The notes under the pieces are model-generated. The model saw only the letters and a list, made by a program, of their open reading frames with translations, was not told where the DNA came from and did not search any database. A program made the translations under genes and the position numbers. Below are positions 2,248 through 27,239 of a stretch of DNA of 27,640 nucleotides, in pieces. The stretch is from an uncultured bacterium (GTDB taxonomy: Bacteria > Patescibacteriota > Minisyncoccia > Phycocordibacterales > UBA9973). Where the stretch lies: NCBI GenBank assembly GCA_903869975.1, contig CAIQBF010000107.1:1-27640 (forward strand), read 5' to 3'. Each line of letters begins with the position of its first letter. The stretch's first letter is position 1.

Positions 2248-2661
2248 ATGAAGGACACGAACTGCCTATTTTGCAAAATCGCTACCGGAGAGATCCCTTG
2301 CGATAAAGTGTACGAGGACGCGGATACGCTCGCTTTTTTGGATATACACCCCGTTAATCCAGGCCACACACTTGTGATCCCAAAAGAACATTGCCAAAAT
2401 GTTTTCGAGACTCCTGAGGAAATCTGGAACAAGGTGATGCAGAGCGTACAAAAAGTCGCCCAGGCAATTCGTACTGGACTACCTACAGAAGATCTGAACA
2501 TTGCCATGAACAACGGCACCTACGCAGGCCAAGTCGTATTCCACGCCCACGTACACATCATGCCCCGCCACGCAGGCGACGGCTTTGAACTCTGGCACGG
2601 CAAAATGTATGCGGAAGGCGAAGCAAGCGTTATCGCAGAAAAAATAAAAAAGGCTTTCTGA
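2248..2661 (+). CDS. HIT-family (histidine triad) nucleotide hydrolase
   Basis: CLFCKI N-terminus, DIHPVNPGHTLVIPKEH, and the histidine triad QVVFHAHVHIMPR. Confidence 0.95.
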   Translation: MKDTNCLFCKIATGEIPCDKVYEDADTLAFLDIHPVNPGHTLVIPKEHCQNVFETPEEIWNKVMQSVQKVAQAIRTGLPTEDLNIAMNNGTYAGQVVFHAHVHIMPRHAGDGFELWHGKMYAEGEASVIAEKIKKAF

Positions 2662-2746
2662 GAAGGCCTCTCGCAGGACCCGCAGGGGTCCGAGAGGCGC
2701 CGTTCGCGGGCACGCGAAACGGCGTTGCCTTTCAGAAAGCCTTTTT
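2647..2746. repeat. Structured intergenic repeat, copy 1 (outer inverted repeat enclosing a 59-nt two-hairpin core); likely also acts as a bidirectional terminator between the convergent HIT gene and pgk
   Basis: Outer arms AAAAAGGCTTTCTGA(G)AAGGC / GCCTTTCAGAAAGCCTTTTT. Core 2668-2726 aligns without gaps to 27102-27160. Confidence 0.85.
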
Positions 2747-2762
2747 AATTTTGTCTGCGATT

Positions 2763-3881
2763 CTACTTTAATGCAGTAATTCCCGGCAATGTCCCCTTCG
2801 AAAGAAACTCGAGTGTAGCTCCTCCGCCAGTCGATACAAAACTGAATTTATCCGCAAGCTTCTTCTTCTCAACAAGCACGGAAGTGTCTCCGCCGCCGAT
2901 AATAGTTTCAGCTTTTGCATTCGCAAGAAGCTTCAAAAGAGCCTCAGTAGCCTTGGTGTATCCTCCTTCGTAGTATCCCATCGGGCCATTCCAGAGAATG
3001 AGTTTCGCTTTTGCGATTACCGGAGCAAGTGCTTCAATTGCAGGTAGTCCGATATCCAAAATAGAATCTTCTTTCGTGACGCTTGCAAGAGGAACCGTTT
3101 TTGCTTTCTTCTCCTTACCTGAAACCACTACCATATCAGGAATGATTAACTTCTGATTTTTTATCATGGCTTTCAAATTCGGAAGGTTCTCATCGGTCTT
3201 AGATTTTCCAACCTCAAACCCTTCAGCCTTAAAAAAATTGTTGGCAAGGATACCTCCGATAAACACACTGTCAGCTTCAGCGAGATATTTCTTGAGAAGC
3301 GGAATCTTGGTCTCCGCCTTTCCGCCGCCAAGAATAAAGAGGAATGGGCGCTTCGGCTTCAAAACGCGAGATAGTTCTTTGACCTCGCGTTCAAACTGAA
3401 GTCCTGCATATGAAGGCAGGAGTTTCGCAACACCAACAATCGACGCATCTGCGCGGTGAGAAACAGGGAATGCCTCGTTTACATACGCATCACCGTACGA
3501 TGCAAGAATGCGTGCAAACGCTTTGTCGCCTTCTTTTTCCCCTGGATTGCTTCGAAGATTCTCAAGCATGAGAACGTCGCCATTCTTCATATCCTCAAGA
3601 GCATCCGCAACCTTCACTCCTACGATGTCGTCAACGAAACGAACTGGAATATGCTTTTTGAGTGCGGAGTATACCGGCTTGAGAGACTCTTTAGGATCAC
3701 GGCCGATGTGTGAAATGATCACGACGCGCGCACCCTTCTTCTGAAGAAGCGCGATGGTCGGAAGCGCAACTCGAATACGCGTCGCATCTAAGATCTTTCC
3801 GTTTACGATAGGCACATTGAAATCAGTGCGCACGAGCACATACTTTCCCTTACAGTCCTTGAGTGATTTAACGGAGATCAT
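2763..3881 (-). CDS. pgk: Phosphoglycerate kinase (372 aa; start revised from the track's 4070)
   Basis: VLVRTDFNVP, SHIGR, LENLR, ILGGGK, WNGPMG, GGGDT, STGGGATLEFL. Homology begins at MISVKSLKD (ATG 3881). The upstream in-frame extension overlaps tpiA and is not PGK-like. Confidence 0.95.
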   Translation of the reverse strand: MISVKSLKDCKGKYVLVRTDFNVPIVNGKILDATRIRVALPTIALLQKKGARVVIISHIGRDPKESLKPVYSALKKHIPVRFVDDIVGVKVADALEDMKNGDVLMLENLRSNPGEKEGDKAFARILASYGDAYVNEAFPVSHRADASIVGVAKLLPSYAGLQFEREVKELSRVLKPKRPFLFILGGGKAETKIPLLKKYLAEADSVFIGGILANNFFKAEGFEVGKSKTDENLPNLKAMIKNQKLIIPDMVVVSGKEKKAKTVPLASVTKEDSILDIGLPAIEALAPVIAKAKLILWNGPMGYYEGGYTKATEALLKLLANAKAETIIGGGDTSVLVEKKKLADKFSFVSTGGGATLEFLSKGTLPGITALK

Positions 3882-4656
3882 TGGAATCTTTGAGATTATT
3901 AGCGGTTTGTAATATGGCAACGAATTTCTTGGGCGTGAGACTCGCGCGTCCGGGCAAGAGCCCATCCGCCTTACCTCCGACCAAAAATCCAACGGCGTTC
4001 TTCTCGTCCACCGATCCTCCGTAGAGAATGCGGACTTTCTCCGCGGCGACTGCCCCAAAAATATCGGCAAGTACTTTTCGAATATATATCATCATCTCCT
4101 GACAATCCTCCGGTGTAGCATCACGACGATTCTCGGTCGACGAAAGTGCCCAGACTGGTTCATATGCAATAACAAGTCTCGACAAAGCGGATTTTGGAAT
4201 ACCCGCAAGGCATTCTTCGATCTGCGTCTTCACGACGCTAAGATACCACATGGTTGTATCGCGCTCAGTCTCCCCTACGCAGATAATCGGCGTCATCTTG
4301 TTGGCAAGCACAAGCTCTACCTTTTTGTTTACAATAGCATTTGTCTCACCAAGAGATCGGCGCTCCGAATGACCAACAATGACGTACCGAATCTTCATCG
4401 GCGCAATCATACCCGCAGAAACTTCCCCGGTAAAAGCACCCTCTTTTGCAGAAGAAATATTCTGCGCAGCGAGACCAAATCCAAGAGAAACCGACTTCGC
4501 AAGCTCAGGAAGATACACAAAAGGAGCGGCGACTGCAGCGTCGATATTTTTGAATTTTGAAGCCTCTTTTTTAATACTGAGGAAATTCGTCCGGGCATCG
4601 CGCAGGCTTTTTGGGTTCATCTTCCAATTGCCGACAATGAGTTTTTTCATAGACAT
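3868..4656 (-). CDS. tpiA: Triosephosphate isomerase
   Basis: GNWKM, GAFTGEVS, IVGHSERR, AYEPVWA, ILYGGSV motifs. Confidence 0.97.
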   Translation of the reverse strand: MSMKKLIVGNWKMNPKSLRDARTNFLSIKKEASKFKNIDAAVAAPFVYLPELAKSVSLGFGLAAQNISSAKEGAFTGEVSAGMIAPMKIRYVIVGHSERRSLGETNAIVNKKVELVLANKMTPIICVGETERDTTMWYLSVVKTQIEECLAGIPKSALSRLVIAYEPVWALSSTENRRDATPEDCQEMMIYIRKVLADIFGAVAAEKVRILYGGSVDEKNAVGFLVGGKADGLLPGRASLTPKKFVAILQTANNLKDSNDLR

Positions 4657-18175: not shown

Positions 18176-18253
18176 GCAAAATAAAAAGGCGGATCAAAAT
18201 TTTCTACGCAGTCTTCGCTGCCTTGAAAATTTTGATCCGCCTTTTTGTTTTGC
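18176..18253. terminator. Very long hairpin after rny (29-bp stem, 20-nt structured loop)
   Basis: GCAAAATAAAAAGGCGGATCAAAATTTTC / GAAAATTTTGATCCGCCTTTTTGTTTTGC: 28 Watson-Crick pairs plus one G.U. Confidence 0.8.
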
Positions 18254-25087: not shown

Positions 25088-26047
25088 TTATTTCTTGCTG
25101 TGAAACTTTTTGTGAATTTCACGCAGCTGCTTGTCGGTAACGTGGGTATATATCTGCGTGGTCTGAATATTTGCGTGACCGAGCATGACTTGCACACTGC
25201 GGATATCGGCACCATTCTCAAGAAGATCTGTCGCAAAACTATGGCGCAGGATATGCGGAGTGACTTTGCGCGAGATGCCGGACTGAATAGCGTATTGTTT
25301 GACGATGCGTTCGATAGAGCGGGGAGTGAGGCGAGAAGAGTCACGTGTCGTCGACTGTACTTTGTTGCGAGAAAACTGCACGAACATCGGCTCATCCATA
25401 TCGGTTCGCTTTTTCAGGTACTCGCGGATAGCATCCTTAGCGCTATCAGAGAGGAACACCACCCGCACCTTTTCACCCTTTCCACGAATAGAAAACTCAT
25501 CTTTCGAGAGATCAAGGTCGCGGTTGAGTGAGCAGAGCTCGGCAAGACGAAGACCTGTTGAGAAGAAAAGTTCAAGCAAGGCTTTGTCGCGCAGATTGGA
25601 AACACTCGGATCAGGAAGCTTGCCGCCGCCTTTCGGATCAGAAAGGGGAGCGGCGAGCAGTTTGTCGAGTTCACTCGAACTCATCAGATCAAGCTGACGC
25701 TGGCCGACTTTCGCAAGTTCGATGCGATCGGGCGAGAGAGCAGTAATGCCGCGCTTCATGAGATATTTCAAAAAACGTCGAAGAGCGATGAGATAGTAGT
25801 TCTGCGTGTTCTTTTTCATAGTCGAACTCGCCTGCCCACGGACGGAAGCGCCCTCCGATCGGTTGAGATAGAGCCGGAACTCACGAATGCGATCGTCAGT
25901 AATGCCCGAAATATCTGAAATCTTCGTAAAATCAAAGAAACGGGTGAGATACTGCTCATAATTCCGTACAGTCTTCAGACTCGAGCCCTTCTCGATCTCC
26001 ATATATTCGAGAAATTCGCGTTTTAGTCGATCAGCTTCCGTACTCAT
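25088..26047 (-). CDS. XerC/XerD-family tyrosine recombinase
   Basis: SAM-like N-domain; catalytic residues in TGLRLAEL, GKGEKVR, TPHILRHSFAT, LGHA...TTQIY. XerC versus XerD cannot be assigned by eye. Confidence 0.93.
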   Translation of the reverse strand: MSTEADRLKREFLEYMEIEKGSSLKTVRNYEQYLTRFFDFTKISDISGITDDRIREFRLYLNRSEGASVRGQASSTMKKNTQNYYLIALRRFLKYLMKRGITALSPDRIELAKVGQRQLDLMSSSELDKLLAAPLSDPKGGGKLPDPSVSNLRDKALLELFFSTGLRLAELCSLNRDLDLSKDEFSIRGKGEKVRVVFLSDSAKDAIREYLKKRTDMDEPMFVQFSRNKVQSTTRDSSRLTPRSIERIVKQYAIQSGISRKVTPHILRHSFATDLLENGADIRSVQVMLGHANIQTTQIYTHVTDKQLREIHKKFHSKK

Positions 26048-26506: not shown

Positions 26507-27031
26507 ATGAGTATCGTCAAACACGCCGACCAGCGCGTCGCTATTTTCATCGACACGCAGAACCTGTATCACAGCGCCCGCAATCTCTACAAATCATACG
26601 TCAATTTCGGCAACGTCCTCAAAGACGCCCTTGCCGGCCGCAAGCTCATCCGCGCCATCGCGTATGTCATCACCAGTGAAGCAGGAGATGAAAAAGCTTT
26701 TTTCGACGCACTCGTCAAAGTCGGGATCGAAACCAAAACAAAAGACCTCCAAGTATTTTCGAGCGGCGCAAAGAAAGCCGATTGGGATGTGGGTCTCGCT
26801 GTCGACGCTATCAAGATGTCCCACAAAGTCGACACCGTCATTATCGCCTCCGGCGATGGCGATTTCATCCCACTTGTCGAATATCTTCAGATGAACGGTG
26901 GTACACAAGTAGAAGTCGTGGCTTTCGGAAAATCTTCTTCCATGAAGCTCAAGGAAGTCTGCGATGATTTTCTCGACCTTTCAGAAAATCCAAACAAGTA
27001 TCTCATGCGCGGCGGGGGAAATAGGAGATAA
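26507..27031 (+). CDS. NYN-domain protein (LabA/DUF88, PIN-like fold)
   Basis: IFIDTQNLY, KKADWDVGLAVD, ASGDGDFIPLV, QVEVVAF. Confidence 0.92.
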   Translation: MSIVKHADQRVAIFIDTQNLYHSARNLYKSYVNFGNVLKDALAGRKLIRAIAYVITSEAGDEKAFFDALVKVGIETKTKDLQVFSSGAKKADWDVGLAVDAIKMSHKVDTVIIASGDGDFIPLVEYLQMNGGTQVEVVAFGKSSSMKLKEVCDDFLDLSENPNKYLMRGGGNRR

Positions 27032-27076
27032 CATTCTAATACACCTAAGAAAAGCGAAGTCGAACCCTACGTGCCT

Positions 27077-27185
27077 AAATAAAATACTCCGATAAAAAGG
27101 CCTCGCGCAGACCGCGAAGGCGGTCGAGCGGCGTCGTTCGCGAGCACGCGAAACGACGTTGCCTTTTTATCGGAGTATTTTATTT
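27077..27185. repeat. Structured intergenic repeat, copy 2 (perfect 25-bp outer inverted repeat around the same 59-nt core)
   Basis: AAATAAAATACTCCGATAAAAAGGC / GCCTTTTTATCGGAGTATTTTATTT; core matches 2668-2726. Confidence 0.85.
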
Positions 27186-27239
27186 GGGTACGAGAAATGA
27201 CAGACTTTCCTTTTCCCACGAAGAGAGTAAAATCCCAAT

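Follow-up and report, generated by a model that had tools for sequence, protein, structure and literature searches.

A branched, structure-constrained module in the loops of terminator-like hairpins of ultra-small Patescibacteria

What is a GC-rich sequence of some 70 nucleotides, folded into a three-way junction, doing at the top of two otherwise unrelated hairpins that stand 24 kb apart in the genome of an uncultured bacterium? The window that raises the question is a stretch of 27,640 nt from a genome denoted G000 (715 kb, 95% complete, in 110 contigs). A preliminary description, made from the letters alone, had noticed a 59-nt core that recurs without gaps at a second site, with base differences that preserve pairing. 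Self-comparison of the window places this core inside a gapless 70-nt repeat of 83% identity (2663-2732 versus 27097-27166), and the compensatory differences are real in both hairpins of the junction: GGACCC/GGGTCC versus GACCGC/GCGGTC in hairpin 1, GCCG..CGGC versus GTCG..CGAC in hairpin 2. As single strands, the two regions fold into a long stem with the three-way junction on top, at fold-energy z-scores of -11.6 and -12.9 for the two copies (0 of 200 shuffles fold as well); the + strand of each folds more stably than the - strand.

The family consensus reads, 5' to 3': a 5-bp helix (P1), an unpaired CU, a 3-bp helix (P2), an internal loop with GCA on the 5' and GA on the 3' side, hairpin 1 (hp1, 4-6 bp with a GNNG-type loop), hairpin 2 (hp2, a lower helix, a bulged A, a 6-bp upper helix and an AGCA loop), an unpaired U and the closing strand of P1. 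The core measures 69 nt in the window copies and about 70-80 nt across the family. Copy 1, on the + strand as are all its parts, has its core at 2663-2731, supported by covariation and by scores of 97.6 and 87.2 bits under covariance models R1 and R2 (described below), with P1 at 2663-2667/2727-2731, the unpaired CU at 2668-2669, P2 at 2670-2672/2694-2696, the internal loop at 2673-2675 (GCA) and 2692-2693 (GA), hp1 at 2676-2691, and hp2, including its bulged A and its loop at 2709-2712, at 2697-2725. What had been drawn as a CTC/GAG junction helix with a 5-nt bulge is in fact the 3-bp P2 (columns 8-10 with 38-40) beside the GCA/GA internal loop. The locus-specific hairpin that carries this core, delimited as an inverted repeat and by folding, consists of an A-rich 5' arm (2632-2662), which overlaps a HIT gene in its final 10 codons and TGA and whose homologue in relatives is the 5' arm of a plain terminator after HIT, and a T-rich 3' arm (2732-2761), which mirrors it and stops 1 nt short of the stop codon of the convergent pgk (2763-4070, - strand).

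Copy 2, also on the + strand, repeats this architecture with its core at 27097-27165 (R1, 94.6 bits; R2, 90.9 bits), CGC/GCG as P2 and AGCA as the hp2 loop. Its arms, again defined by inverted repeat and fold, occupy 27070-27096, 38 nt 3' of an NYN-domain gene (26507-27031; Pfam), and 27166-27192, 47 nt upstream of pnp (27240 onward); their two mismatches are each a G-U pair on the + strand. The closing stems of the two copies have AAGGC/GCCTT alone in common, as had been stated, and are longer than the 20 and 25 bp that went with that statement: 2632-2661/2732-2761 are 30 nt and 93% complementary, and 27070-27101/27161-27192 are 32 nt and 94% complementary. An independent Logan contig (run X1) covers 72-2743, the core of copy 1 included, and position 2709 is an A in Logan contigs of runs X1 and X2, which restores the consensus AGCA loop. 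The window DNA occurs in lake-water metagenomes, no RNA run figures among the public runs that contain it, and in the sampled population the DNA contigs from public runs contain neither an empty allele nor the other core orientation at this site.

"Present twice" turned out to be an undercount. A third copy came from a pattern search; it lies on a different contig, has a closing stem of ~45 bp of unrelated sequence and follows a normal terminator 3' of rpsI. R1, the covariance model built from these three copies, finds 13 copies in G000; R2, built from 32 sequences, finds the module in 107 of 151 genomes from the GTDB family to which G000 belongs, at 1-17 copies per genome and distributed over 35 of 45 genera, and outside the family matches in 2 of 150 genomes sampled across the rest of the phylum. 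Among the 29 hairpins that a palindrome scan of G000 detects (ungapped arms of at least 22 bp), nine contain the junction core and 12 a second kind of cap, to which we return. In Rfam 15, tRNAs alone pass the gathering score for the window and 20 loci of other genera compared for the junction module; no hammerhead, twister, twister-sister, pistol, hatchet or riboswitch matches at that score, and at E<=10 the two window copies draw just miRNA-type long-hairpin matches far below threshold. The module is without a match in a phage collection, and searches of the full-text literature, together with a recent preprint on noncoding motifs, gave no description of the element. This is, apparently, an undescribed multi-copy family restricted to one lineage of ultra-small Patescibacteria; the suggestion of a REP-like dispersed repeat outside the known Rfam families thereby gains 13 copies in this genome and a presence in 107 of 151 relatives at the family level. 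The prosaic explanation, a duplicated terminator, a chance resemblance or an artefact of assembly, could appeal to the position of both window sites at gene 3' ends and to several G000 copies that lie at contig ends, two of them with fold-back arms of more than 150 nt. Its probability is nevertheless negligible, given that the family has 13 members in G000 and hundreds in the 107 carrier genomes, which come from many studies, and given covariation, an independent contig over copy 1 and fold z-scores below -11.

That the structure is under selection, as had been proposed from two copies, is borne out by covariation in sets of 32 and 56 sequences. In the latter, all distinct and from many genera, 94.1% of cells are standard pairs, versus 35-42% when the partners are slid by 1-3 columns; both sides have changed in 23 of 26 pairs, and the observed covariation score is reached by 0 of 500 shuffles. 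Even the short P2 covaries (CGC/GCG, UGC/GCA, UUC/GAA, CUC/GAG). The most conserved positions are unpaired: C6, U7, A13 and G36 are invariant in the 32 sequences, and G11, C12, A37 and the AGCA loop are nearly so. Within the helices, G-U outnumbers A-C by 10 to 0 when the terminal P1 pair (3 A-C) and two doubtful pair columns are excluded; in the arms the count is 37 to 16. The excess of G-U over A-C implies that one defined strand folds, and the bias tracks the strand of the core even where both flanking genes are antisense to it (8 to 1). Conservation of this strength suggests that something reads the module. Two local resemblances were pursued and set aside: hp2 is superficially like domain V of group II introns, but the AGC triad varies across subfamilies, and the strand layout does not suit a K-turn in the GCA/GA loop.

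The copies sit at gene 3' ends, in any orientation; the classes of (left, right) gene strands number 20, 18, 13 and 6 loci, on gene orientations that rest on crude ORF calls. The neighbors are unrelated housekeeping genes (HIT/pgk, NYN/pnp, rpsI/MGMT-like, PAP2/secDF, ruvA, pilB/ruvB, ABC/gdh/HerA-like, dnaB, a release factor, uvrD, msrB and ppdK/aminotransferase), and this variety, together with the varying orientation, rules out a riboswitch or gene-specific leader. A functional structured RNA of a more general kind would be transcribed within terminator hairpins, either to cap mRNA 3' ends, by binding a protein or blocking nucleases, or to act as a new small self-cleaving ribozyme, and would owe its multi-copy pattern to repeated recruitment. 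Functional RNAs typically betray themselves by helices that covary around unpaired nucleotides that do not change. Between species the core is more conserved than the flanking coding DNA, and G-U is tolerated where A-C is not. Known self-cleaving ribozymes are small, are built around multi-stem junctions and have no gene association, and in these respects the module resembles them. The gene 3'-end location points the same way, with the upstream gene on the strand of the core at 38 of 57 classifiable loci; about a third of the copies, however, stand in divergent regions or antisense to both neighbors, the wobble bias goes with the strand of the core and not with that of the genes, and no Rfam ribozyme or other RNA family matches. 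We regard this reading as a minority possibility.

Near-identical copies at unrelated loci, present in one species and absent from another, also bring to mind a classical non-autonomous transposon (a MITE, a REPIN-like element, or a PATE of IS200/IS605), whose transposase, acting in trans, would recognize the folded single-stranded DNA of the junction and target hairpin loops. There is ample precedent for the components of this scheme: IS608 ends, REP elements and attC sites combine strand-specific folding with a conserved bulged base, and IS1397-type elements insert into the loops of palindromic units. The enzyme itself does not come to light. The linked HUH/RAYT or IS200/IS605 transposase that the preliminary description had proposed to look for was found neither in G000 nor in five other carrier genomes (G001, G011, G010, G012 and G007): none of the six, three of which are 99-100% complete, has a match to the Y1/HUH transposase (PF01797), which was matched in control genomes, or a TnpB. 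No reverse transcriptase is found in G000, the only genome searched for one, and the sole tyrosine recombinase of G000 (PF00589) is a single Xer-like gene (window 25088-26047, - strand). That gene lies ~1 kb from copy 2. The search comprised Y1/HUH, TnpB, reverse transcriptase and PF00589; a trans-acting enzyme may be one that was not recognized, or may reside on an unassembled or extrachromosomal element. The ends of the copies likewise speak against transposition: the terminal inverted repeats that they have in common extend for just about 5-10 bp beside the core, and the junctions of copy 1, compared with empty orthologous sites at HIT, have no direct repeat that would mark a target-site duplication. 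To our knowledge, moreover, the second cap (20-30 nt) is smaller than any transposase substrate. Taken with these absences, a classical transposon is improbable.

A different account of the family begins with the arms. In G000 they are AT-rich and palindromic, have a GC-richer stem flanked by an A-tract and a T-tract, and lie 0-60 nt from stop codons; by sequence, the host hairpins look like bidirectional terminators. Among the G000 copies are five whose cores are within 0-3 nt of one another, while their arms defy alignment except for a few bases adjoining P1. The preliminary description had argued that a plain terminator has no need of a conserved branched core, and a plain terminator indeed does not suffice: the loop is a conserved 69-nt module. 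The long closing stems that it had grouped with the structure are genuine, but lie outside the repeat unit and are a property of the locus, at copy 1 the ancestral terminator. In eleven relatives of the same genus, most HIT orthologues end in a plain hairpin of 20-24 bp with a loop of 3-4 nt at the stop codon, followed by a T-run, and the HIT 5' arm of one relative (G003) matches that of copy 1 almost base for base. Since relatives have the matching plain terminator, the hairpin at HIT is the older, ancestral part and the core was added within its loop, copy 1 being the only one of three compared sites whose arms can be matched to relatives. That the arms are mirror copies made at insertion was also considered; against this, at copy 1, is the presence of the palindrome without the core in relatives.

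The comparison of filled and empty loci extends to other sites. For copy 2, upstream of pnp, and for the rpsI copy, relatives have ordinary terminators in the orthologous position, and, conversely, sites that are filled in G001, G011, G012 or G010 are tiny hairpin-less spacers or plain terminators in G000; presence of the module thus differs between species at orthologous sites. In other genera some copies have arms of 0-10 bp only, so that "always in a terminator loop" is valid for this genus and not for the whole family. Whether presence reflects gain or loss of the junction family rests on parsimony, and the direction is polarized just for the second cap family.

That second family consists of a conserved segment of ~20 nt (core GCAGCGAAGACTG, in either orientation) between inner arms ending in ATTTTC/GAAAAT, nested in locus-specific terminator stems; its inserts are 20-44 nt long. 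The 30-nt pattern that includes the inner arms occurs in 12 copies in G000 (for example window 18176-18253 and loci L195 and L198-L200), and none of 150 further genomes of the family has a convincing match. The copy at 18176-18253 lies 3' of rny, where most of 12 relatives have a plain terminator of A-tract, GC-stem and T-tract that is like the outer arm of the G000 hairpin. Judged from these sequences, the cap at rny was gained recently and in this species only, as a small palindromic insert that entered the loop of a terminator, and the junction family would be an older, larger example of the same behavior.

How the cores have evolved once in place can be followed between G001 and G011. In three orthologous pairs, with flanks of 400 nt on each side, the cores are identical at 64/64, 64/64 and 62/65 positions, the arms at 91%, about 50% and 70%, and the flanks at 86%, 80% and 84.5%, respectively. 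Cores that are better conserved than their flanks imply purifying selection or homogenization of the core; the identity of the G001 and G011 cores could also stem from recent horizontal spread. The arms of these pairs change faster than the flanks, yet stay paired. Two G000 copies (contigs C56 and C51) have orthologues in G011, and the core of each is nearer to its own-genome paralogues than to its orthologue, which implies concerted evolution or replacement. One orthologous pair has a mirrored indel in both arms, which fits the known mechanism by which template switching perfects quasipalindromes (PMC7202029).

The core also turns around. It is inverted between collinear flanks in three of five orthologous pairs, and this flipping between arms accounts for the mixed orientation relative to genes. 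As regards an inverton, what is seen is a core between inverted repeats that is flipped between species, with one orientation in the contigs of the sampled population. For the RNA interpretation the consequence is direct: orthologous copies that are flipped and yet identical cannot all have a cis role on the sense strand. The proposal of a structured 3'-end RNA belonging to the upstream gene is accordingly weakened, by placement in either orientation and by flips at orthologous sites with 100% identity, even as the location at gene 3' ends stands.

The explanation that we favor, with somewhat better than even confidence, is that the module is a REP-like, structure-constrained "loop cap" of terminators that is spread by hairpin-templated copying and read by a host factor. 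A function as loop cap, a folded form, either RNA or single-stranded DNA, and termination activity are what we infer from the sequences. The module would fold back on itself and so persist in the loop of a terminator while the host hairpin stays intact; because it is self-folding, it fits there without destroying the hairpin. Template switching or gene conversion would carry copies of it from one palindromic terminator to another, without a transposase of its own. Copying would start in the AT-rich inner arms, and such a start would account both for a similarity that falls off with distance from the core and for modules inserted either way round. The invariant unpaired bases would form the contact surface for a putative host factor on the folded single strand, DNA or RNA. 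Copying along these lines is probably the mechanism, to judge from the patterns of identity, flips and arms. The loop-cap reading and that of a functional RNA are compatible and not mutually exclusive.

A bolder version makes the junction a trans-recognized signal, either a new ribozyme or a protein site on single-stranded DNA or RNA, that is kept uniform by transposase-independent, hairpin-templated copying; we hold it only tentatively. Were it true, the terminator palindromes of Patescibacteria would be a substrate for a previously unknown kind of sequence spread, and the flip between arms would be a regulated or tolerated switch.

Of known systems, the functionally closest are the REP/BIME-type extragenic repeats. 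The REP, BIME and REPIN elements of Proteobacteria are mobilized by RAYT, a Y1 HUH transposase. Like the junction family, they are extragenic and multi-copy, lie mostly at gene 3' ends or between convergent genes in both orientations, form hairpins with compensatory changes, and are restricted to lineages with no fixed gene association. A REP, however, is a stem-loop of 20-40 nt with a GTAG-type head, standing alone or in REPIN pairs; here the unit is a branched junction of 65-70 nt that lacks the head and is nested in locus-specific arms, in six genomes without a RAYT. MITEs and other palindromic repeats (Correia/NEMIS, ERIC/IRU, RUP/BOX, Rickettsia RPE) are likewise small and gene-less, form long hairpins, lie close to the ends of genes and may be present in one relative and absent from another. 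The pattern of conservation is reversed: theirs is in the terminal inverted repeats, whereas here the arms are unique to each locus and the center is conserved; and they have a parent IS, of which there is no trace here in the families searched, nor of a target-site duplication at HIT.

Bidirectional intrinsic (Rho-independent) terminators have in common with the host hairpins a place directly after stop codons and A- and T-tracts around a GC-richer stem, but their loops are of 3-8 nt and unconserved, in contrast to a structured 69-nt module common to unrelated hairpins. IS1397 and ISKpn1 take the apical loop of an extragenic palindrome as their target; they are full insertion sequences with a transposase, whereas the inserts here are of 70 nt (20-44 nt for the second cap) and have none. 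In integron attC sites, structure is kept over sequence, the fold is strand-specific, a base is extrahelical and the apical part can branch. The junction family is alike in conserving structure more than sequence, in strand-specific folding and in its conserved extrahelical base; it differs in having no R''/R' and L''/L' boxes at the base of the hairpin, in being dispersed instead of arrayed as cassettes, and in having no integron integrase, the sole tyrosine recombinase being a single Xer-like gene.

The genomes of Patescibacteria are among the smallest and most compact of bacteria; that a lineage so compact keeps a dozen or more 70-nt modules, better conserved than the adjacent housekeeping genes, is a reason for attending to them. 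If the module spreads between terminator hairpins without a transposase, bacterial genomes would have a simple and so far undescribed route for the propagation of short sequences; should it be an RNA or single-stranded DNA signal, it points to a protein partner or a catalytic RNA in uncultured organisms. There are practical consequences as well. Capped hairpins break assemblies at palindromes and lengthen apparent open reading frames (as in the HIT genes of G000 and G007), and the covariance model from this work can be used to annotate the modules.

Several observations at individual loci are worth recording. Two capped hairpins of G000, C51:11550-11927 (L012) and C103:3397-3832, have arms of more than 150 nt that reach the contig end; in the former, 147 of 155-157 arm positions are paired (8 mismatches, 2 gaps). 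These long arms are either fold-back by the assembler at a palindrome or a real long palindrome. Also in G000, C48:3040-3215 and C108:3724-3881 are long terminator-like hairpins with unrelated loop inserts of 85-94 nt, and the orthologue of the C48 site bears the junction in G001 and G011.

At HIT, the A-tract of the terminator (2632-2661; L041-L050) doubles in this genus as the codons of a Lys-rich C-terminus (..KIKKAL, then stop), and the mirror arm co-varies with the coding sequence species by species. G007 has a divergent member of the family at the same HIT gene end (L051, 1900-2050), with different arms, and its HIT frame runs into the member; either this copy is ancestral, in which case many losses could have followed, or the family reached this terminator a second time, independently.

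Downstream of rpsI, within the first ~200 nt in G001 (L099) and G002 (L106), a composite insert precedes the original terminator; it opens with the end of rpsI and a small terminator hairpin, after which the rpsI end is repeated twice, first inverted and then direct, with a GC-rich structured core between the two repeats. The core of this composite has GCAG/CGAG words and an AGCA-loop hairpin in common with the junction family, and the whole looks like a related element whose arms were copied from the target. In the pnp leader (window 27193-27239; L082-L096), finally, 13 compared relatives of the genus have a conserved hairpin of ~45 nt, GACGTATAGAATTGC...GCAATTTTACGGTC; G000 is without this hairpin and retains the promoter-like stretch upstream of it.
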